NCBI GenBank assembly: GCA_964016885.1
Contig: OZ024745.1
Span: forward strand, 46,190,001 to 46,254,000
DNA from: Eledone cirrhosa
Lineage: Eukaryota
Length of the DNA: 64,000 nucleotides
Direction: 5' to 3'
Part shown: piece by piece, positions 10,086 through 58,050 of the stretch
Layout of the letters: every line of letters begins with the position of its first letter
Numbering within the stretch: the stretch's first letter is position 1
Made by a program: the position numbers and the translations under genes
The notes under the pieces: model-generated
Databases searched by the model: none
Told to the model about the DNA's origin: nothing
What the model saw: only the letters and a program-made list of their open reading frames with translations

Positions 10086-11830
10086 TGTAGAAAAGATGAA
10101 TATAAAATGAAAGTGCTTTTATAAAGGAATTTATTAGGTATTGACATATGTTTCTGTAACAGACGGAATACCTATGTATCGCTGCTTGCGTAATCATATA
10201 ATGTTAGCAAGTATTCAATAGCAAATGTATAATCAGTTGTCACTTCTTCAGAGATATTGGATAAATTGGAAAAAATCAGAAAAATTAAAGTATTTATATT
10301 AGTTGTAAGAAAGGAAGAAGAGAAGGGATAGTATATGACAGATGGCAATTCAATTTGCTGGTAAACAAGTATATAGAAGGTTTTTAATGAGAATACAATG
10401 AGTATATGGCTTATTTTATCTAAATAAGAATATTTGGGAGTGTTTATTTTAATCTATATTTGACCAACTGAACAATGGACAGGGCTGGTCGTTTGGTGTA
10501 GTAGTATTAATACAGATATAAAGTGTCAAGTAAGGAAGAGAGAGATTTTCACTGCTACTGTATAACAACAATGCTAGTAGCCTGCTGGTATATGCATTAG
10601 GGAATTGAATTAAGAAATCTCATTTTATCTATAGTAGTTTATATCTATAGTAGTTTATATTAAATGGTAAAGAATAGAAGAGTTGATAGAATTAAGACTA
10701 ATAGAGAATGTTAATATGTATTTTGACAATCAAACGGAGATGGAGACAGGCGTTCAATCCTGGTAGCGTTTGTAAAATGAAAATGTAGATTTCAAGCGAT
10801 GGTTACAGTATAACGATCGCTCTATTCTGTTATTTAATAAAATATTTTTGGATTTCATAATACAAAATATTTCCATATTACACAATTTCCAAAATTCCTG
10901 TCCGTGGTTATATGGAGGGGCAGCGGTTATTATATCCCATTTTAGGTTAAATTGTTGGTTATTTTCGCGCAGCTGCCAAGCCTTGTCTGTGAGTGTTGTT
11001 ACATAACGCTGGTTTTCAAGTTTTATCGAGTAACGATGTCTATAAAGGCGAGATTTGAAGGAGGTAGCTGTAGACCCCACATAATACCACTTCTGGCTAC
11101 CCGATTCGATAGTACATTTGTATATGATGTATATGTTGTCAAAATACATATTAACATTTTCTATTAGTCTTAATTCTATCAACTCTTCTATTCTTTACCA
11201 TTTAATATAAACTGCTATAGATAAAATGAGATTTCTTAATTAGTTGTTATACAGTAGCAGTGAAAATCTCTCTCTTCCTTACTTGACATTTTATATCTGT
11301 ATTAATACTACTACACCAAACGACCAGCCCTGTCCATTGTTCAATTGGTCAAATATAGATTAAAATAGGTACTCCCAAATATTCTTATTTAGATAAAATA
11401 AGCCATATACTCATTGTATTCTCATTAAAAACCTTCTATATACTTGTTTACCAGCAAATTGAATTGCCATCTGTCATATACTATCCCTTCTCTTCTTCCT
11501 TTCTTACAACTAATATAAATATTTAATTTTTCTGATTTTTTCCAATTTATCCAATATCTCTGAAGAAGTGACAACTGATTATACATTTGCTATCGAATAC
11601 TTGCTAACATTATATGATTGCGCAAGCAGCGATACATAGATATTCCGTCTGTTACAGAAACATATGTCAATACCTAATAAATTCCTTTATAAAAGCACTT
11701 TCATTTTATATTCATCTTTTCTACATTTTCTCCGGAATATAATTTATACTCGTTGAGCAAACCTACACGTACGCTGTTCATCTCTAACGTGACGATATAT
11801 TATCACTACATTATTGATAACTTGAAATGT
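10086..11830 (-). mobile_element. Penelope-like element derivative: GIY-YIG endonuclease plus about 600-bp inverted repeat
   Basis: IIYKCTI...YYVGST..FKSRLYRH...KLCNME...YCNHR is a PLE-type GIY-YIG. 10086-10729 is the reverse complement of 11136-11725. Confidence 0.8.
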
Positions 11831-11931: not shown

Positions 11932-12285
11932 TTTCTGAATTTGTTTAGCAAGATTCTTTATCTGAAATCGTGTGTTGAAACCGATATTGTTATACTTTGG
12001 GAGGGTCATGTTGCCAATAAGAAATACACGCACCAGTTGCTTTCACTTCAATTTAATTTAATATATATTTATAAATTTACAAATTTATAAATTTCTGGTT
12101 GGTTGGTTGGTTCCACAACCAGATAGTTGTTTATATAAACAACTATCTGGTTGTGGAACCAACCAACCAACCAGAAATTTATAAATTTGTAAATTTATAA
12201 ATATATATTAAATTAAATTGAAGTGAAAGCAACTGGTGCGTGTATTTCTTATTGGCAACATGACCCTCCCAAAGTATAACAATAT
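11930..12285. mobile_element. Same family as 28780-29258; about 300-bp perfect palindrome
   Basis: 11984-12285 is self-complementary around gtttatataaac and shares ttatactttgggagggtcatg with about 28835. Confidence 0.75.
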
Positions 12286-12985: not shown

Positions 12986-13053
12986 TGTCATCATCATTTA
13001 CGATTTACAACCAAGATATATATATGTATATATATATATATATGTGTATATGC

Positions 13054-13084
<31 letters not shown>

Positions 13085-13112
13085 TACACATATATATATA
13101 TATACACACACA

Positions 13113-16021
13113 CATCATCATCATCATCATCATACATCCGCTTTTCCATGCTTGCAAGGGTGGGACGGGTCTTATTCAGCACAGCATCTCTCCACTCGTC
13201 ACGGTCCCTCATCATCTCCACCGTGAGCTTCAATGATCTGAGGTCTGTTCTCACCACCTCCGCCCATGTTTTTCGTGGTCTACCTCTACCACGTCTTCCT
13301 TCAACTGGCAATTCCTGGCACTTCTTCACCCATCGGTCATCCACCCATGCGCATTACATGTCCATACCACCTCAGTCTCCTCTCCCGTACACTACATTCT
13401 ATCCCTCTCAGACAGTTTCTCTCTCAACACATTTATGCTGGGTCGTTCACGCACATTTACACTGCACATCCAACGGAGCATGCTTGCCTCATTTCTCTCC
13501 AGCCATCGCATATCCTCTGCAGTTGCTGCCCATGTCTCACTACCATGCAGCATCGCGCTCCTCACACAGGCATCATACAACCGCCTTTCGTACGCAGGGA
13601 GAAACCGTTCTTCGTCAACAGAGGAAGCAGCTCCCTAAATTTCTTCCAACCCGTTCTTATTCTAGATACTATGGCCTCAGAACACCCTCCTCCCATGCTA
13701 ATCTGATCTCCTAGGTACCGGAAGCTATCCACCACTTCTATAGCGCCCTCCTGCATTTGAAAAATGTGTCTATCAATGCGACTTCTACTGTCTAATTTCC
13801 CTGTACATCTACTGCATACATATTTCTCCCTACCTGTTAGTTTGCCTGCTATCCTGCTACATCTCTTGTGTACCCAGGATCTGCATTGTGTGCATTTTAT
13901 AGAATTTATGCCAGTTCCTTTTCTGCATATCGAACATGGCCATTTCCCTGACAGAATCAGGGTTTTGTCCTCTTTTCTACTCATCAACACTTTTGTCTTA
14001 GCTAGATTCACTCTCAGTCCTCTTGCTTCCAACTGCTGTTTCCATAGCCAGAATTTATTCTCTAGCTCCTCTACTGATTCTGCTATAAGAACCAGATCGT
14101 CAGCATAGAGAAGTTCCCATGGACAGCCAGTCTTAAACTCCTCTGTTATGGCTTGGAGGACTATAATGAACAAGAGCGGGCTGAGGACCGAACCCTGATG
14201 TACTCCTACTTGTATCTGGAATTCCTCACTAAACTCCATTCCTACCCTGACTTTACTGAGAGTACCTCTGTACAAAGTTTGCACTGTCCTCACAAGCCAT
14301 TCCTCAACACCTAGCTTCCTTAAGGACCACCAGATGACAGATCGGGGTACTCTATCAAAGGCCTTCTCTAGGTCAACAAAGGCTAAGTATAGTGGCTTAT
14401 TCTTCTCTAAGAACCTCTCTTGCAATTGTCTCACCAAGAAGAGGGCATCTGTTGTACTCTTCCCAGGCACAAAACCAAACTGCATCTCATCTAGTTTGAC
14501 CCTTTCTCTAATTAGTTGTGCTAAAATCCTTTCTGCCACTTTCATAACCTGATCTATCAGTTTTATACCCCTATAATTGCTCCTCTCCAAAGCATCCCCT
14601 TTACCTTTGTAGCAATTTATGAGAATACTGCTGCACCAGTCTTTGGGTATGACACCACCATATATAGCCTGATTGATGATGCGTGCAACGAGTTTAGTGC
14701 CTACGTCCCCTGATGCCTTCAGCATCTCAGCAACTATTCCCGATGGTCCGGCAGCCTTACCATTTTTCATTTTCATAATCGCCTCTTGGACCCTATATTC
14801 GTCAATCTCAATAGCTGGTCCCTCTGTCGGATCTACCAAGGGTAATTTCTCTCTCTCCCATTCGTTCTCCACATTCATCAGTCTCTCATAATGACATTTC
14901 CAGGCCTCCTTTTTCTGATCATTTGTGACACTAAGTACACCAGCATCATCCCGGACACATTTATCTCCAACAACATCCTGATTTGCATTGACACACTGCC
15001 TTGCAATGTGGAACACCGCACGCCTCTGATCTTCCCGTCGCAGAACATTGGCAAACCTCCTACTCTCTGCCTCCCTGCGTGCTAAGTACACCTGACGTCT
15101 AGCTTCTCTCTTAGTGGCTGTATATTCTTCCCTACTCCCACCCTTTTTCCAAGCCTTCCATGCTAGTCTTTTGTCTCTAATAGCCTTATCTACTGTGCTG
15201 TTCCACCACCAGGTCACTCTCTGTCTGGTTGGAGCTCTGCAGCAAGTTGTCACGTAAGAAATTCCAGTTATTATCTATGTCATGCGTCTCTAAATCGTCT
15301 TCTTTTTCGTCATATACATCTTGAAGGGCTTTCCTAAATTTGTATTTTAGTGAAAGGTCTTTTAGCTTCCAGACCTTTCTTCTCCACACCTTCCTATATG
15401 TCTCATTCCATCTCTTGCTTACTGAGATATCACTAACAACTAACCTATGCTGTGGGGTACATTCTTCCCCAGGGTATGCCTTGGTATTAGACACTATCTG
15501 CCTGTCCCGCTGCCTAACTAGTAAGAAGTCAATCTGGCTTATGTGCTCACCAGATTTGTAGGTTATTAGGTGATTGGCAGGTTTCTGGAAGTTTGTGTTG
15601 CAAATAGTCAATGTACCCGCATCACAAAATTCAAGAAGTCTCACTCCTTCATTTCTTGAACCGTAACCGTGCCCACCATGTACCCCAGTGTAACCATCCT
15701 GGAGCTGTCCAACATGACCACTGAAGTCTCCTGCTAGCATAACGATGTCTCCGTCCTCTGTCATTGCGGTTGTTTGCAAATGTTGCTCATAAAAGCAGTC
15801 TTTCTCATCTTTGCCTAGGCCTGCTTGGGGAGCATAGGCCAAGATGATTGTCAGTAGTCTCCTACCTACAACTAATCTAAGCTTAATTATTCGATTACTA
15901 ACTTGAACTACCTCTATTGTCTTATTGATCCATTTCTCAGCCAGGAAAATGCCTACTCCCCCTAGCCCATCATCCTTACCTACCCAAAATAGCTTATAGC
16001 TAAGACGCTTGCCTACGACTA
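13113..16021 (-). mobile_element. RTE-clade LINE, 5'-truncated within the APE endonuclease, frameshifted
   Basis: APE motifs (AYAPQ, LAGDF, SQIDF, QHRLV), RT motifs (QFGF, DLEKAFD, QGSVLSP, YADD), PHD finger and (GAT)n tail. Confidence 0.95.
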
Positions 16022-16758: not shown

Positions 16759-19600
<2,842 letters not shown>

Positions 19601-21189: not shown

Positions 21190-23481
21190 TATATATATTA
21201 TATAAATATATGGATAGTATATATATGTCTGCCACTCTTGCCTCAAGTGGGAAAACTCCTGTCCAAACCCATGCAAGTGTGGAACATGGACGTTAAACGA
21301 TGATGATGATGATGATGATGCATGTGTATGTACATATATATATATATATATCATCATCACCGTTTTACGTCCGTTCTTCCACGCTAGCATGGGTTAGATA
21401 TATATATATAAAGAGAGAGAGGGGGGGAGAGGAGGGAACAATGTTTCAATTTAAAATTTTTTTTATTCTTTATTAAACATGATGTGTTTTGCAGCTGATC
21501 AGCTTGAGTTGTTAATGTAGACTCTCAACTTGGCTGTGGCATCCATCTGCCATAACAAACATTACTCACTAACCAACTATATATATATTTATAGACATAT
21601 ATATATCATCGTCATTGTTTTTACGTCCATTTTTCCATGCTTATATTCGTATGTGGTTGACGGCTGAGAGAGAAGAGTACTCAATACCAAAATAGCAATT
21701 TTAATATTCATTTTATTAAGGCTAAATAGTGAGTCTTGTATGTATGTTATTCATACATACATCATCATCATCATCATTTAACGTCCATTTTCCACACTAG
21801 CATATACATACATACATACATAAATATATACATTCATATATATATGCACACATATATATATGCACACATACATAAGTATATACATTCATACATATATATA
21901 CGTTCATATGCATGTACACATATACGTTCATATGCATGTACACATAAATGCATTCATAAAGAGTAACCATGCACACACTCATATACACCTATTACATAAG
22001 TGCATTGACACATTCATATGCTTATATACACACTAATTCACTCATGCATTCACAAATTCCTGGGACTCTCTTGCTTTGCAGCATAGTTACGGCTCTTTAC
22101 ACTCAGGCTTCAAATGCCACTGGGGTTAACTTTGCCTTTCATCCTTATGGTGTTAAAAGAATAAAGTAAATGTACTGGAGTCGATTTAGTCGACTTTCCC
22201 CTTCCCTTCAAATTGATAGCCTTGTGCCAAAAGTAAAAACAATTATTATCATAAATAATTTCTCAACACAATTCATGCTACCTAAGGTTTCAAAGTTTAC
22301 TCTAGCATAAGTCATAGAGACATTATGTATGCTAGTGTTGTTTATCTTTCAAGCAAGAATAAGCAGCACTATATATAGTGTCTCTATGACTTATGCTAGA
22401 ATAGGCTATGAAAGCTTAGGTAGCAAGCAACTGTGTTAAAAAATTATTTATAATAATATATTTTGAGTTTTTTTTCTCTTACCTATTCTATGGAAACCCT
22501 TGACACTATCTGTATATATATATGCACACATACACTCATGCACACATACATAAAGAGCAATCTAAAACCAAATGTATAGCAATGAAAAACAAGCATTAGC
22601 AAAATTAAACGAAGTAAATTTAAATAGCACAGAAACTAATTATATTCACTAAAATCTATTTTCTTAACTGTAAACACAGGAAATATCTTAATCAAACAAA
22701 ATTAAAATTTTAATTGAATCAGTTCTATTCAATGGCACTACTTCAGATTATAATATTATGCTATTCTAAAATGTTTCTAAGACATAACATGCAAAGTAAC
22801 ACAAATTTCAGATAACAGTCAATATAATAAATAAAAGCAACCAAAACAGTGAGTTTGAGAAAACACCATCATGCCAAATATGTATAGTTAGTAATGAAAC
22901 TCAGTAGATGTTAGCATTCATTAATTTCGACTCAGGTTACTAATAATCAAAAATAGCAAAGGAAACTTTAAAAAGCTTGTTTATGAAAATGAGTATTGAC
23001 CCTAAACAATCTGCTATGAAGCAAATCTTTAATATAAGCCATAATCTTAAACTCAAATAAATTCATGTCAACATTAGAAAGGATGTATAACACTAGCTCC
23101 AAGAATACATGCAAATATCCAAATTTGTAAAAACATGTCACCTATGCTTATAAATATTAAAAAAAAAAAAGAATGTAAACACATGTTGAAATAATAACTA
23201 GTATCTATATATATAAAATATAGTAAAATGTTTCATTGGATCAGTTGGAATAATTTCATTAAGCTATGGACAAGATTGCCTTAATAAGCAAATACATTTA
23301 TTTTATCCAATCTCTATTTACTATTTTAAATCCATTGGATGCTACATGTTGCCAATAAAAACAAAATTTATAGAAGCATAAAATCACCATTTACGTCTAG
23401 ATCTGTATTGTCCATCAATAGAACAAAGTCTACTCTAAAACAAATGAAGCTACAAAAGGGAAGAATGAGATTATGAAATAC

Positions 23482-24057
23482 CTTAAGATGTCTCGCTGTG
23501 ATGTCCTTGCATAAAGAGATCTCTTTCTGAGTTAAATCCACATTAGATAGTGGATAAATGATTTCTCCAATGATTTCGTCTCTTGAGAACTTGTCAAAGC
23601 TGAGAACCACAAAGTGAAGGATAATGTCTTCAAGTTGGTTATAGTCAACTCCATAAAATGTGAAAGTTTCATCGTAGATTGGATTCAATGTCTTTCTGAG
23701 GATTCTGGTTTTGCGCTTGTATTTCTTGTCAGGCAAGAGCTGGAGCTTGATGTAGGGGTCACATACAGCAATTCCTGGTACTGATGGGTTCAGGTCTGAT
23801 GCTTTTAAAATTGTTACATGAAGAGCATTTTTCTTTGAATCATGCTCAATCGAAAAGTCTATGTTTCCAAGGTAAGGAACTTTTGCAGCAGATGAACTCT
23901 GAAACTTCTCAAAAGCCCCATCATATTTCTCGTTTTCCAATTCAAAGTCTTCTTTGCAACCGAAGGCCTCAAAAAGATACTTGCTTTTCTCAGACATCCC
24001 TTCTAAATCTTTTTCAGACGAAGTTCGTCCCCAATTATCTCCATTTGATGGACTTAC
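23482..24057 (-). CDS. Syt4: Duplicated C2A-like exon (C2A') with short linker and no TM; 5' boundary uncertain (24057, 24093, or ATG at 23997)
   Basis: Open frame of 192 codons from just after an in-frame TAG to AAG|gtattt, the same donor position and sequence as the canonical C2A exon. Hand alignment gives 97/131 identical residues with no indels. Confidence 0.8.
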
Positions 24058-24060
24058 CTA
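24052..24060 (-). promoter_or_regulatory. Candidate recursive splice site (TAG|GTAAGT)
   Basis: An acceptor AG directly abuts a perfect donor GTAAGT at the start of the C2A' open frame. The pyrimidine tract (gtccttttaaaacc) is only moderate. Confidence 0.45.
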
Positions 24061-24544
24061 GGTTTTAAAAGGACACTATTGTGATCTCTGATGCTTAAAA
24101 CAAATAAGACAATACAATAAAACAAATATTTAACCCTTAATCTATGTCTAAAGTTATATTTTTTAAAATTTAGTTTATAGAAATGAAGAAACTACCAAAA
24201 TTAACAGATTAAAGATATTTAAATATAGAAAACAATTATATAATAATATAGTGAAACAATATTTGTGATTGTGTGATTGAATATGTATAGTGAGTGTTCT
24301 TAGCTATCAGCTTCTATTTAAAAATAGGTATATAAGTGTAAACACAGTATTCTTAAGTTATCAAATTGGTGCAATTGTATAGTGCCAGAATAAGGATTAA
24401 CAGAATACTGGTTGTTAAGAATGAAAGTTAACAAGGAAATGTTTAATGATCATCTCTATCTCTTGAAGAGAAAATTGACAATAGGCAAGACTTCAAATCC
24501 CACCAAGAAGTGGCTGACCATAATCTGACATCTTACATATATGT

Positions 24545-29314: not shown

Positions 29315-30537
29315 TCATCATCATCATCATCAACGTTTAACGTCCGTGTTCCACGCTTGCATGGGTTTGGACGGGGGTAGTCCCACTTGAGGCAAGAGTG
29401 ATTGTCTTGCTCGCATAGGACTGTCTGGCAGGTTTTCTACGGTTGGATGCCCTTCCTAACACCAACCACATTTACAGTGTGGGTCTGGGAGGTTTTTACC
29501 GTGTTGCCTACACGACCACATTACAGCGTGGACTGTGTGTTTTTTTGTCGTGACACCTACACGATCTCATTTGTTTCGGCCTCGATGGCGCGGCACCAAC
29601 ATAACTTTACATAGAACGGGGTGGTGTGGATGGGGTGGGGGTGGTGGTGGTGGGACGGGGTGTATTTTGTTAGAGATGCCTACTGGCTGGAGTAGGTTTT
29701 ACTATATATTTAGGTAAGGCGGGTCTTCTCTGTTACTGAGTACCGCCAAAGGTCTCGGTCCAGTGACATTGTCTTGGAGAGGTGTAAGTGTGTGATGTCG
29801 GAGTTTATCAGCTCGTCCCAGGTTTTTCTAGGTCTGCCTGTTCCGTGACTACCGTCTATCTTTATTGCCCTGCACTTTGTTATACAGCTATCGACTTTCA
29901 TGCGCATCACGTGTCCATACCAACGTAGCCTTCTCTCGAGTAAACAACATCTGATCCCTCTTATCTCTAATTTTTTCCTTAGTTCGTTTATGCTTTGCCG
30001 TTCACGTATATTACTGTTACACATCCAGTGGAGCATGCAAGCTTCGTTCCTCTCTAGTCTGCGTATATCCTCTGCACGCAATGCCCAGGTCTCACTGCCA
30101 TGCAGCATTGCTGTTCGTATGCAGACATCGTACAACCTGCCTTTCATTTTTAGGGAGAACCATTTAGCAGCTAATAGTGGTATAAGCTCTCTGAACTTTT
30201 TCCAACCAGTTCTGACTCTAGCTACAGTACTTTCAGAACACCCTCCCCCACTGCTGATTTTATCGCCCAGGTAACGGAAGCTGTCCACTATTTCTATAGA
30301 ACCCTCTGCGCAATTGAAAGAGCTAGTATTTTGTGGGCACTTGCTGCTACTTATTGCACCAGAACACCGGCCACATGTAAAATCTATGTTCTTAGTTAGC
30401 TTACCTGTGATCCCACTACATCTTTTATGCACCCATACTTTGCATTTAGGACATAAAATGGAGTTTCTACCTACGCCTTTCCTACACACCGAGCACGACC
30501 ATTTCCCAGAAGGGACCGCCGCCTTGTTTTCTTTCCT

Positions 30538-30540
<3 letters not shown>
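29312..30540 (-). mobile_element. RTE-clade LINE 3' fragment (second subfamily, long 3'UTR)
   Basis: PHD finger, FRYLG, HGSETW, RLRWYGH and GRPRKTW, then 3'UTR and (GAT)n tail. Confidence 0.9.
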
Positions 30541-30592
<52 letters not shown>

Positions 30593-32967
30593 TATATATA
30601 TATATATAAGTATGTATTATATACATCATCATCATTTAACATCCACTTTCACTGCTTGCAAGGGTTGGTTAGGGTGTCAACAGACCAAGTTATTACTCAA
30701 GCAAAGCTACTCACTCCATGGATGGGCCAGGAGACTGCATCTCACTTATATATGTTTCCAAACTCTACTGAGTATTTAAACAGATGGCTGCCCATAACTG
30801 ACTTACTTATGATCCAAAGTGCATTTTAAAGTGTGGGATCATATAAACACCATGAATTGAATTATTCCAAATGATTGAAACAAGCAATAATAAACGACCT
30901 CCTTTGATAAAGAAATAATGTATCAAATCAAATATGCTCATTTCTTATATATAAACACCCACTCAGCTAATTATATAAAGTTAGTGAAGAGGAGTCACCA
31001 TGACATGAACTCTTAATTCCTGGCAGAGTCATAGGGGCATTGTCATAACATACAACATGTCTTGGACTTTAAACTTAGCAGAACCTATGCCTCTCCAAGT
31101 CAGAACACAGTTGGTTTATTCCAGATAAAGAGAGAGTAGAAGAGAAAGTGAGGAAGAGAGATAGAAGAAGAATTGGAATTTGATTTCAGAACACAGAAAG
31201 AGATAGCATGAATAATACAAAGCATATTATCTAATGTTCTATGACTCTGAAAATTTGCTAACTTGAAGAAGAATCACAAACTGCTGCTGTTTCTATCTTG
31301 TTGCTGATTCTATTATCAGGTAGTATTAGTCAGCTTTGCTTGAGCATTCTGTGACATGAAAAAAAAACAATGCTACAAACGATGGTACAAATTTGTTCAA
31401 ATATAACGATTTCTTATATAATGAGAGCAATAAAGTTGGAAAAAATGTAATAGTAAAGCACATTGAGAAAAGTGAAGTAATTAGTTCTGTGACTCTCAAT
31501 GGGTTTAGACAATATTCTATTTCAACCATACGACTCTGCTGAAAAATAAAAATAGAGAGGTGCCTAGTCAAATGAAATTGATTATTTATAAATTTGTCCA
31601 GATTCTTTTGGTTCCCCCTACCCATAACATACTTCCTCCCCAACTCTCATAGGGTAGAGAAAGCTCTTCAGTTAAGTTAATAACCAACAACTTCCCCAGT
31701 ACTGGTGCCATGATAAAATGCACCCAACACACTCTGTAAAGTAGTTGGTGTTAGGAAGGGCTTCCAGCTGTAGAAATGAAACCAAAGGGTTGTGAGGACC
31801 CTCCTGTTATGACATGGCAATCTCCTCAGTGCTGGTGCCACAATAAAATGTACCCAAAACACCCTCTCAGGCATTTAATGATAGGAGGGTGCATCCAGCC
31901 AATCTGGGGTGTGACTCTGATTAAGTACTGACTTGGTTTATGATGACTCATCCAACCCTTGCTAGCAGAGAAAATATGATGATAATGATGTGCCTAAATT
32001 AAATATCATTATTGATTCCATTCCAAACATGAAATTCAGTAACAAATAATTGAAAAGATAATTAAGATAAATATAATATATGTGTAGCGAAATTATCATG
32101 GGTAATATTAACTGCAGGTTAAAATAGCTATCACAAAACATACAGGTATTTAAGCCCAGCTAAATTACAATTTTGCCCTCTTGCCTTTCCTCTCCTTCTC
32201 ACTCTGCTGTTCTCTGAAACAGTTGGCAACCAACACCCAACTGTAGCAGTCACCATTCATTAAGGCTCTGATGCAACTGGGCCAGTAAATCTACTGTGCA
32301 CAAGACAATATCTTGTCTCAACCAACATTTATGCATCCCACATTCACTCAGAAGCCCAACATATCACAACAAATTACGTTTATCTGTGATCACTACTTCT
32401 AGCCACCTGTTAACAAAATATTCTGTTGCATCAAATCTTTTACATATTCTGGCTGTATTATATTCTGCACATGGTGTTATTTTATATCAGGGCACACATA
32501 AAAATATCAGAATTAGCAGTTTGGTTTTCCTCATTGTTTTGCCTCAATTCATCATGGTTCTGATTGTTATTCAACCACACCAATCAACACATTCAACAAC
32601 ATGTACAACAACATGCACAACATTTAACATAACATTCACCAACTTCGACAAATATAACAGTTCAACCACAACAGCTAACCACATAACCATTAAAATGAGA
32701 TCTACAAACATTTCTGCTAAATATGTTAATAATATAGATGTCAATATATAAATGCATATATTTACCTACTTACTCATATATATATATATATAAATAATAG
32801 AGGTATATATATGGTTTTTATTGCTGGACTCCCTTCCTATCACCACCTATCTTGCAGAGTGTACTGGGTGTATGTTTCATATCAATGAATGAATTACTCA
32901 GAAGAAATATGTGAAGGTAAAGAGAATTAAGCAAACCACCTAAGTTCACAAAATATCATTGTTTTCA

Positions 32968-49745: not shown

Positions 49746-50157
49746 AAAATCTTGAATGTATATGATCAAAGAGGAGCATAGTCATGTTTTCAACATAGCA
49801 TAATTGAAATCAAGAAATAGAGAGTAAGATATCAATTTAGCTGTCAATTCATGTGAAGAGCCCATCACTTTCAGAGTTGAACCCTTTCATTACATAAGTA
49901 TTATATAATTGTCAAGGGTTTTGAGGTGGATCATAGGGAGATAAGTGTAATCAGAATAAATGTATGTTACATTGATATCTCACTCTCTATTTCTTAATAC
50001 TTGTTCTCTGTATTCCCACATGATAACAGGTAGCAGTCATCTTATGTCCCTTGTGTCTGATTCACCTTGAAATCACATTATTGCATTGAGTGCTGAACAT
50101 GGTTTATACCTGCATTAATTGCAAACAAAACAATGTATATATATATATATATATATA

Positions 50158-51795
50158 TTTGGGTTTGTTCCAGGGAAAGGCACCACTGATGCGCTCTTCC
50201 TTGTGAGGCAATTACAGGAAAAGTACCTAGCTAAAAGTAAGCCACTCTACTTGGCATTTGTCGACCTTGAGAAAGCCTTTGACAGAGTTCCACGTGCAGT
50301 AATCTGGTGGGCTCTTAGAAAACTAGGAGTAGATGAATGGCTTGTGAAAGCGGTACAAGCCATGTATAGGGGAGCAGTCAGCAAAGTTAGGATTGGCAAT
50401 GAGTATAGCGAGGAATTTAGCGTACAGGTTGGGGTCCACCAGGGCTCTGTTCTTAGCCCTCTCCTGTTCATCATAGTCCTGCAGGCAATAACGGAGGAGT
50501 TTAAGACCGGATGCCCATGGGAACTCCTGTATGCTGATGACCTCGCACTCATAGCTGAATCTATGGTAGAACTAGAGAATAAATTCCAAACCTGGAAGCA
50601 GGGACTAGAGAGAAAGGGCCTCAAAGTCAACATGACAAAGACTAAGGTCCTTATAAGTAGACGAGAAAACAGAACCCAGATCCCCTCAGGGAAATGGCCT
50701 TGCTCAGTATGTAGGAAAGGTGTAGGTAGGAACTCCATTCTTTGCCCCAAATGCAAACAATGGGTACACAAGAGATGTAGCGGGATCTCAGGAAGCTTAA
50801 TTAAGAATGTAGGATTCACATGCAGCAGCTGTGCTGAAACAGCAAGCAAACAGCCACAGGAAACAAGTACCACCAATCTCTGGGAGGGCCCTGTAGAAAC
50901 AGTAGACAGCTTCTGCTACCTAGGTGACCGAATTAGCAACGGAGGTGGGTGCTCAGAAAGTACAATAACTAGGGTAAGAACGGGATGGAAGAAGTTTAGG
51001 GAACTACTACCACTGCTAGCTGCAAAAGGCTTCTCCCTCAGAATGAAAGGCAGACTGTATGATGCGTGTATCCGAACAGCGATGTTGCATGGTAGTGAGA
51101 CCTGGGCGCTGAAGGTGGAAGACTTACGTAGATTAGAGAGAAACGAAGCCTGCATGCTCCGATGGATGTGTAACAGTAATATACGTGAACGACAAAGCAT
51201 AAATGAATTGAGAGAGAGACTGAGCATAAGAGGAATCAAATGCTGCGTGCAGGAGAGGCGGTTACGCTGGTATGGACATGTGATGCGTATGAAGGATGAC
51301 AGCTGCATAAAAAGGTGCAGAGCACTAGAAGTTGATGGAAACCGCGGAGTGGGGAGACCCAAGATGACTTGGGATGAGGTGATAAAAGCCGACCTTACCC
51401 AACTACACCTCTCAAAGTCAATGACACACGACCGTGACTTCTGGCGTCACGCAGTAATACAGGGTACCCGACCTCCCATGGGTACATGCTGAAGCATATA
51501 AACAATATGCCCCACTCCCCCCACCGCAAGGTGGTCGTGGAGGTGCCACGGCAAAAAAGCACCCAGCCCACACTGTAAAGTGGACGTGTAGGCGCCACGA
51601 AAAAGCACCCAGCACTCACTGTAAATGAGGTTGGTGTTAGGAAGGGCATCCAGCTGTAGAAATCAAGCCAGATCAGTTCCTGTATGAGCAAGGCATGGTC
51701 AGCCGACCAGACACTGCCCACAACAGGACAACCCGTCTAACCCATGCTAGCGTGGAAGAACGGACGTAAAACGGTGATGATGATGATGATGATGA
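50158..51795 (+). mobile_element. RTE-clade LINE, 5'-truncated, open from RT to C-terminus
   Basis: FGFVPG, DLEKAFD, YADD, PHD finger and RLRWYGH, then 3'UTR and (GAT)n tail. Starts directly after (TA)n. Confidence 0.95.
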
Positions 51796-56037: not shown

Positions 56038-57217
56038 ATATATAAAAAGAAATTATCAAACTTTTACTGTACTTGTTAGTTGTGTAACATTGCAGTTACT
56101 AGAGGTGCTGTCATCCCCCACCCCACCCCACCCTCCCAAAAAGGGACCGCAGTGAAAACAATATGCATTCCTAAAAAGTTTACTGGAAATATTTACCTTT
56201 ACAGTAAATGTTTTAAAGGACCATATCTAGAAGTGTGATTTTTTTAAAATAATTAATATGGGGCAGATGTGGGCTCTATAAGCCATAGTGAAGGCAATCC
56301 ATCTAGGAAAGCAGTCGCTCTGAATAAAATCTGTAACAGGTTAGAGAGGAAGGACCCTTAAGTCAGGTGAGACAACCTCTTTAGTGTTGGTGGCATAAAT
56401 AATACACCTTTTCCATGCTTTAAAGTGGTTTGTGTTTGGAAAAACTTTAAATATGACCAACACAACATATGATGTAGGTATTAAAAGAGAAATCCCACTA
56501 AATGTGAGGTTAAACTGTGAATCCATTATACTGTAGTACTTCATCTCTGAGGTATAGAAATAACCAACAATTGCTGGATTTGTTGCTGCAAGGCCATACA
56601 TTGTTTGGGGGAAATGTAGCCAATTGAATTTGTCTGAGGACATATTCAATACTTATTTTATTAATTCTGGAAGGATGAAAATCAAAGTTGATCTTAGAGA
56701 TATTTAATATACAGAACAAAGAAGGGTGAAAATAAATACTTTTAGATATTTAGTCTTGCATGCTACTGTCTCTGCTCTGCTACTGCTTCTAATATATTCC
56801 ATAAATACACATATATAAAGAGATATTTGTCTGCTTATATATGTGTGAGTCTATGTGCATGCACGTATGTGTGAGTGTATGTGCATGCATCTATGTGTGA
56901 TTTATGTGCATGTAAGTGTGGGAATTATGAAATATGTTTGCACCACTAAGTTTCAATATTTTGGTAAATTCTTCATTATAATATTTTTTTAATTTATTTC
57001 AATATTTGAGAAAGATATTTTTTTTTCATGATTTTTAAAATATAGTTAATTATTGGGTTGATAATAATATGTATGCTGTTCTATAAAATATTTACCAAAA
57101 TGAATCTAGTTAAACACATCAAAAAATGAAAATATCACCAAAAAATACCAGCCAACAGTGCAATACTTTTCTAATCTAATTGCATTCCAAATATCAATAA
57201 CAAATGTGTTCAAATAC

Positions 57218-58050
57218 CTTGAGATGTCTTGGTGTGATGTCCTTGCACAAAGAAACTTCTTTCTGTGACAAATCCACAGAAGATAGAGGGTAAACAACTT
57301 CTCCAATGATTTCATCTCGTGAGAACCTGTCAAAGCTGAGGACAACAAAATGAAGAGTAATACCAGGAAGCTGGTTATAGCTAATACCATAAAATGTAAA
57401 TGTTTCGTCATAAACTGGATTCAATGTCTTCCTGAGAACCCGAGTCTTGCATTTGTGTTTTTTCTCTGGAAGCAGTTGCAGTTTGATGTATGGATCACAC
57501 CCTCCTATGCTTGGGTCTCTTGGTGGAAGCTCTGAGGCCTGCATGATTGTCACCAAGAGAGCGTTTTTCTGAGAATCATACTCAGTTGAGAAATGAAGTG
57601 TTCCAAGATGTTGTGTTTTCAGGTCATCTTCGTGTTTCTCTCGCATACACTCATCCTTCTCAGGTGTTGCACCATCTTTTTCGTTTTCAATGCTATACTC
57701 GGCTTTCACATGGGATGGATCAAATTGTGATGGAAGAGGACCTCCTCCGCCACCACTTGTTCCACTACCACTGCTTTGGCCTCTCTCAGCAAGACTTCCA
57801 CCAATGTGCTCACCCGAGGAAGGATAGGTTGGGCTTGTTGCTTTTGATTTCATGATAACTTTTCGGGCTGAGGATGTCTTTTTCAAATTTCCATTGTTGC
57901 TCTCTTTCAACCCTTTTTTAATGGCTGATGAGAGACGATTCTGTGCATTTTTGGCCAGCCTTCTTTTGTAGCATTTGTAAGCAACAGCTGTAGCTGTGGC
58001 AAACATTACCATGACACCAAAGCAAACTCCAACTATGGCACTGGCAGAAA
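57218..58050 (-). CDS. Syt4: Synaptotagmin-4-like exon: TM helix, basic linker, C2A domain
   Basis: Acceptor ttttatatttcag| (phase 1) and donor AAG|gtattt (phase 0). TM AIVGVCFGVMVMFATATAVAY followed by KCYKRR. C2A motifs CDPYIKLQLLP, KTRVLRKTLNPVYDETF and VLSFDRFSRD, the last with the Asp-to-Ser change diagnostic of Syt4/11. Confidence 0.93.

Follow-up and report, generated by a model that had tools for sequence, protein, structure and literature searches.

Organization of the locus

The window, a 64,000-nt stretch of the Eledone cirrhosa genome (contig OZ024745.1), carries on its minus strand part of a gene whose closest named relatives are Syt4 and Syt11. Completed using ten neighbouring stretches, this Syt4/11 gene spans about 117 kb and consists of exon 1, a 57-kb intron, exon A, 33 kb of intron, exon A', another 22 kb, exon C, 2.7 kb and the last exon. 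Exon 1, with 49 coding nt, was placed by spliced contigs at window positions 115213-115165 (L010), 51 kb past the window's high end, and the last exon starts 1156 nt past its low end (L001). Exon A (57218-58050, 833 nt, phase 1-0) encodes a transmembrane (TM) helix, a linker and a C2A domain (Pfam C2 E-value 1.5e-24), and contigs join it to exon 1. Its C2A domain (57218-57610, 131 aa) has the third Ca2+ ligand changed from Asp to Ser with the loop-1 Asp kept, and the exon ends at the donor AAG|GTATTT (57212-57220), which agrees with the U1 consensus at 6 of 9 positions. A repeat-rich intron of 33,160 nt (24058-57217), without a C2 exon, leads to exon A' (23482-24057, 576 nt, phase 0-0), a duplicated cassette identified by Pfam and in contigs. 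It consists of a 61-aa linker (23875-24057), which is acidic, predicted to be disordered and starts with VSP where exon A has TSP, and of a second C2 domain, C2A' (23482-23874, 131 aa), in which the Asp to Ser change is kept, the first loop-1 Asp is Val and the basic strand carries an extra Arg. The A' acceptor (24052-24082), which is weak and whose use is seen in contigs, is followed directly by GTAAGT, a candidate recursive 5' splice site; the donor at the other end, AAG|GTATTT (23476-23484, again 6 of 9 U1 matches), was copied with the exon. After an A'-C intron of 21,779 nt (1703-23481) comes exon C (1579-1702, 124 nt), the first part of C2B, found by tblastn and in contigs. The assembled open reading frame is 629 aa long with A' and 437 aa without it. 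The coordinates, length, phase and open frame that a first-pass annotation had given for A' were all recovered on re-measurement.

A Pfam scan finds one C2 domain (PF00168) in each of exons A and A', and tblastn with A, A' and C revealed no further C2 exon in the window (best other E-value 0.5). With full-length relatives as the query, the 164 kb around the window contain one exon 1, one A, one A', one C and one last exon only, and the close C2A copies among the 14 matches of a genome-wide search are A and A' alone. The first-pass annotation had seen no C2B exon between the two copies, and neither the tblastn search of the window nor the 164-kb search found a second C2B set. Its proposal of an intragenic exon duplication likewise stands, as both copies lie in one gene with a single exon 1 and a single C2B set. 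Two tandem genes were considered and rejected, since a second TM segment, exon 1 and C2B set are all missing from the 164 kb.

Exon A' as a copy of exon A

Re-alignment of C2A with C2A' returned the hand count made earlier, 97 of 131 amino acids identical and no indel. At the nucleotide level the 393 nt of C2A align ungapped with 289 identities, and the 104 differences fall on codon positions 1, 2 and 3 in the proportion 27/14/63. The Nei-Gojobori estimates are a dN of 0.16 and a dS of about 1.9, which is near saturation, giving a dN/dS of 0.083 (bootstrap range 0.04-0.17, from the 1603 of 2000 resamples in which dS was defined). The copy had been proposed to be kept under selection, and the ratio of about 0.08 agrees with this, lying far from the value near 1 that the first-pass annotation had set against its own claim; the orthologous copies of A' are also open, free of stops and frameshifts, in all species seen. 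On these two counts a pseudo-exon was rejected. An assembly artefact was rejected as well, the copies being 26% divergent in DNA and both present in RNA contigs and in other species.

Both copies end in the same AAG|GTATTT donor and the TM segment is missing from A', just as described before. As the VSP start of A' sits at an internal TSP of exon A, the copy is a partial one that runs from mid-linker to the donor. Around A' no relics of the TM part or of the flanking introns were detected, the local DNA scores of 30 and 30 falling within the shuffled maxima of 36 and 41. The linker relics listed earlier need a partial correction: the ENEK match is right, yet SNGDNWGRTSS of A' pairs with SSGEHIGGSLA of exon A, which follows ATSPTYP, and not with SNNGNLKKTSS.

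Splice forms in assembled contigs

Our splicing data are assembled contigs of five runs from five studies with five organism labels; none of the five is recorded as RNA, and they were judged to be RNA from their splice junctions. Inclusion (A>A'>C) is present in three of the four runs that cover A' (X21, X1 and X10), in contigs of 633 or 627 nt that comprise the last 30 nt of A, the whole of A' and 27 nt of C. The fourth, X5, shows the A'>C junction, the 5' end of A' lying outside its contig cover. Skipping (A>C) is seen as 57-nt contigs in all four runs over exon A (X21, X1, X10 and X19), and in X5 the exon-A contig continues into exon C, so that 5/5 runs show skipping; exon A is joined to exon 1 in 3/4 runs. 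The X21 inclusion contig has 0 differences from the window over A', but X21 is not independent of the assembly because its study also holds the best-matching DNA runs. All three junctions named for checking by the first-pass annotation (57218>24057, 23482>1702 and 57218>1702) occur in spliced contigs, and the in-frame three-C2 product that it expected on inclusion corresponds to the 629-aa reading frame with both inclusion junctions in contigs. Contig depth gives inclusion fractions of 0.44, 0.31 and 0.50, a crude measure that we read only as both forms being common. A' is a cassette exon, and both of its splice forms are common. Beyond what had been described before, A' is optional, it is common to decapods, the long protein is already annotated and the start of A' rebuilds a 5' splice site.

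A circular RNA of A', as a joint that goes back 576 nt might be read, was rejected: the X21 contig continues into exon C, and the joint was read as A>A'. The 33-nt piece of X21 shows 3 differences from the end of A', the same as the end of exon A has; the 0 differences of this piece in X1 and X10 are taken as a probable counting quirk, their exon A ends being equal to that of the window. The last 30 nt of exon A (57218-57247) are identical in 4/4 runs, possibly by chance, while exon A overall differs at 44 (X1) and 66 (X10) of 837 positions. The real donor follows this identical stretch, and so does the rebuilt one.

A' might instead serve as an alternative first exon, whose product, started at the internal Met at 23997, would be a soluble C2A'-C2B protein without a TM segment, or as a mutually exclusive exon that replaces A, and a 315-aa model of Octopus bimaculoides (P0106) does begin at this Met. 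However, the contigs are unbroken from A' into exon A in all three runs that cover the 5' end of A', Argonauta has Ile in place of the Met, and joining exon 1 to A' would shift the frame, exon A starting in phase 1 and ending in phase 0 whereas A' starts in phase 0. In the three spanning contigs exon A is the sole partner of the A' 5' end, which speaks against a first-exon role as the main use of A'; as the main form it is already largely refuted. Contigs lose rare forms and a minor form of this kind could escape them; taken as a whole we regard this reading as very improbable.

Distribution and origin of A'

Annotated three-C2 proteins, 621-627 aa long, exist in Octopus bimaculoides (XP_014791402), O. 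sinensis (XP_029658006), Argonauta hians (GAB1602484) and Sepia pharaonis (CAE1175243), whereas the O. vulgaris entry CAI9717685 is the 437-aa skipped form. Among decapod-type assembly proteins P0003, P0108 and P0109 are the skipped form and P0234 is the included form, reading exon1-A-HLK|VSPTY with the same N-terminus as P0108; on a second decapod contig A and A' are present as two separate frames (P0209 and P0208). In Octopus, Argonauta and cuttlefish the copy starts at the same codon. Three C2 motifs were found in four of the 236 fetched proteins, all four from cephalopods, and none of the fetched non-cephalopod Syt4 proteins contained A'. These relatives came from word-based searches (103 matches, the best 120 of 367, and 25 matches), with Nautilus outside the set. 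The long protein is thus already present in automated annotations and appears to be undescribed: literature searches on cephalopod synaptotagmins and on recursive splicing in cephalopods turned up no account of a three-C2 isoform in the literature within reach, which left out most subscription papers and supplements. The accessible parts of PMC9282427, PMC12607849 and bioRxiv 10.64898/2026.09.23.753964 mention synaptotagmins or syt11 but not a three-C2 isoform.

The change of the TSP start to VSP (Thr to Val) is common to octopod and decapod A', and three A'-only residues (H>Y, V>I and V>I) occur in both lineages. One duplication before the octopod-decapod split, which dates to about 270 million years ago, is the likely origin. 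In maximum-likelihood trees decapod A' falls together with decapod A (support 93/90 in a first tree without three outgroup rows and 86/87 in a second that includes them, neither starred), and sites that group the copies by lineage outnumber those that group them by copy by 4 to 3. Along with the strongly different linkers, such trees and such sites would be expected had octopods and decapods duplicated the exon independently. Against two duplications, the breakpoint is identical and accompanied by the same Thr to Val change, the three A'-only residues are shared, and a single A' clade is not rejected by the AU test (p-AU 0.326), which leaves one origin standing; the four lineage-grouping sites moreover cluster 3', at C2A positions 78-122, a pattern that fits gene conversion. 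Trees and sites by themselves cannot tell two duplications and gene conversion apart. Weighing all of this we consider two duplications unlikely, and we infer one origin with later gene conversion.

The two predicted proteins

Exon A opens with a hydrophobic stretch that corresponds to helix 19-63 in the AlphaFold model of P0001, the long form of O. bimaculoides, and is the single N-terminal TM segment. The model runs from the TM helix through a disordered linker, C2A, a low-confidence linker (292-352) and C2A' to C2B, with three beta-sandwich C2 domains; with a mean pLDDT of 61.6 and a pTM of 0.32 it is uninformative on domain packing. Extended synaptotagmins carry an SMP domain, and exons A and A' and proteins P0001 and P0002 contain only PF00168, with the SMP domain not found, so that this is not an extended synaptotagmin. 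Two tandem C-terminal C2 domains are true of the 437-aa form and not of the 629-aa form.

In both copies the third ligand is changed from Asp to Ser, LSFD(R/K)F standing against YDFDRF of Syt1 (2r83_A). The loop-1 Asp is present in 17/17 outgroup C2As and lost, to Val or Ala, in all octopod A' copies seen, and the basic strand reads KYKRKTR in C2A' versus KHKCKTR in C2A. Since A' ends where A ends, inclusion gives C2A' the short connector to C2B and moves C2A about 60 flexible residues away. In the long form the predicted C2A'-C2B pair would act on the target membrane, on a longer tether, and the original C2A would be left behind the predicted disordered linker of about 60 aa. With two of the five customary Ca2+ ligands missing and a more basic strand, octopod C2A' would favour Ca2+-independent binding of lipid or SNAREs. 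We infer that the long form would be a longer tether whose terminal C2 pair has a lower Ca2+ capacity and a more basic surface; judged from sequence, it likely extends farther away from the vesicle than the short form and likely differs from it in calcium binding. The vesicle location and trafficking role of this gene are themselves presumed from its family. This Ca2+ argument is not transferable to decapods, in which C2A' keeps the loop-1 Asp and C2A has Glu. Counting ligands is also an unsafe predictor, as Drosophila Syt4 binds Ca2+ despite its Asp to Ser change (PMC8164606, in the portion available).

We consider it highly probable that A' is a duplicated cassette in a single Syt4/11 gene which yields a predicted protein of either 629 or 437 aa, that it likely has one origin, and that it likely acts as a switch which makes the protein longer and places a differently tuned C2A' next to C2B.

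Splice signals and the route of skipping

The A' acceptor has 7 T in positions -25 to -4, compared with 13-17 at the other three acceptors of the gene, and 4 AG in positions -40 to -4, compared with 0-1 elsewhere. Scored as matches to the nine positions of the U1 donor consensus, a count and not a MaxEnt score, the A|A' junction AAG|GTAAGT reaches 8/9 and the own donor of A', AAG|GTATTT, 6/9. Because A' begins AG|GTAAGT, the joining of A to A' rebuilds a strong donor. In addition, the GTA at this junction is kept in the three of three runs that span it, with bases +4 to +6 read directly in the window's species only, and the six cephalopod sequences in which the start of A' is visible all read Val-Ser-Pro there, while the remaining linker diverges. 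A search for decapod DNA of the A' start, by junction pattern and by protein scan of metagenome contigs, returned none.

Two routes to the skipped form can be drawn from these signals. The weak acceptor and weak donor of A' are enough for ordinary skipping, in which A would be spliced straight to C with the splice sites setting the outcome and the GTAAGT would be a silent by-product. The T and AG counts of the acceptor and the 6/9 donor favour this route, and we consider it slightly the better bet. It does not explain, beyond acceptor preference, why the first codon went from ACA to GTN in both lineages, and given Val-Ser(AGY) and the codon use of this gene GTAAGT would arise by chance with a probability of about 0.07, which is low but not negligible; a preferred acceptor context could have produced it incidentally.

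Alternatively skipping may be mainly recursive: A' would first be joined to A, the rebuilt AAG|GTAAGT would then compete with the weak A' donor, and the winner would set the isoform. An acceptor that abuts a consensus donor, the rebuilt donor's lead over the exon's own, the length of the flanking introns (33 and 22 kb), the GTA in every spanning run and the shared Val-Ser-Pro start all point this way. Against it, the mature mRNA is identical by either route, the A' acceptor is weak whereas true ratchet-point acceptors are strong, and AGGTAAGT, occurring 4 times in sense and 4 times in antisense over the 117-kb gene, is not enriched as a motif alone. Precedents from elsewhere fall on both sides. 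In Drosophila, 7/7 reporters of expressed RS-exons carried the stronger donor at the exon start and were skipped through it, and mutating that donor led to constitutive inclusion (PMC8605326, available part), while the 1.7-4.9% of human exons that rebuild a donor are mostly included (PMC6224609, as far as accessible). We place the chance that much of the skipping would proceed by re-splicing at the rebuilt junction somewhat below even. More tentative still is the full picture, in which coleoids would have gained a three-C2 Syt4/11 by partial duplication, the new acceptor would double as a recursive donor, and regulated re-splicing would change which C2 domain pairs with C2B and adjust the release of vesicles in coleoid neurons.

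Two further features of these splice sites were noted. In the minus-strand interval 24058-24118 a stronger-looking acceptor (15 T in -25 to -4, no upstream AG) precedes the used one by 36 nt; paired with the GTAAGT as donor, it would delimit a microexon of 36 nt (24093-24058), which has a stop in frame 0. The interval 24058-24200 is without contig cover in four runs, which is not counted as evidence. In other cephalopods the read-through frames of P0107, P0208, P0209 and P0210 end in LK-VF for both copies, which suggests that a weak GTNTTY donor (57217-57212 and 23481-23476) has been retained by both copies in octopods and decapods alike.

Relation to known systems

The gene is orthologous to Synaptotagmin-4/11, of which the 437-aa form is an ordinary TM-C2A-C2B member, with the Asp to Ser change in both copies (PMC8164606, portion available); the optional third C2 sets it apart. 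For Syt4, the available part of a synaptotagmin collection from 46 genomes reports only terminal, inter-C2 and C2B variants, with no cephalopod among the genera listed there (PMC2823689). The same source, again in part, describes fish esyt1b, where an internal duplication also added C2 domains to a synaptotagmin-like gene; that gene is of another family and its extra domains are part of the gene product, whereas in the present gene one of the domains can be left out. Mutually exclusive tandem duplicated exons (PMC9741552, accessible part) share with A' an old, selected tandem copy used in alternative splicing, but here A is constant and A' is added, as A>A' in 3/4 runs and P0234 show. With respect to the partner of C2B, A' does behave like a tandem-exon substitution (PMC9741552).

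Closest to the candidate route are the expressed RS-exons of Drosophila (Ubx m1/m2, sm and msi) and the annotated human ones, which are coding, frame-preserving and alternative, lie between long introns and rebuild a donor stronger than their own (PMC8605326 and PMC6224609, parts available). By its sequence A' fits the putative RS-exon definition given in the accessible part of PMC6224609. The Ubx exons m1/m2 are 51 nt long (PMC8605326), while the candidate described here has 576 nt, encodes a whole domain, was born by duplication and is found in a mollusc. If A' is recursive, it would be an RS-exon the size of a domain, born by duplication, and the first in a mollusc within the literature searched; confirmed recursive splicing would provide a route that makes a duplicated exon optional from birth.

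Synaptotagmins are defined by their C2 pair, and the use of the serine-substituted C2A of Syt4/11 is an open question according to the accessible text of PMC8164606. Isoforms that differ by one C2A, in octopods and decapods, provide a natural comparison in which the effects of tether length, of C2A-C2B coupling and of the Ca2+ ligands can be studied; the three-C2 form is a concrete candidate for an alteration of the synaptic machinery specific to coleoids. A gene called syt11, which may not be this locus, is neural-enriched, and its regulatory element drives reporters in transgenic cuttlefish (bioRxiv 10.64898/2026.09.23.753964, in the part available).

Other features of the window

Reverse-transcriptase-like open reading frames with a YADD motif lie at 13016-15354, 16772-19137, 29710-30648 and 50119-51492; we presume them to be of LINE type. 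The first two form a 2.4-kb pair of 95.6% identity. On the minus strand, 10754-11194 holds a 146-aa frame with a YYVG...RLYRH motif, which we take to resemble the GIY-YIG endonuclease of Penelope-type elements. The A'-C intron contains a 302-nt perfect palindrome (11984-12285, 100% self-complementary) and two inverted pairs, one at 10086-10729/11136-11725 (90%) and the other at 20540-20702/20909-21071 (99%), which could fold in the pre-mRNA.
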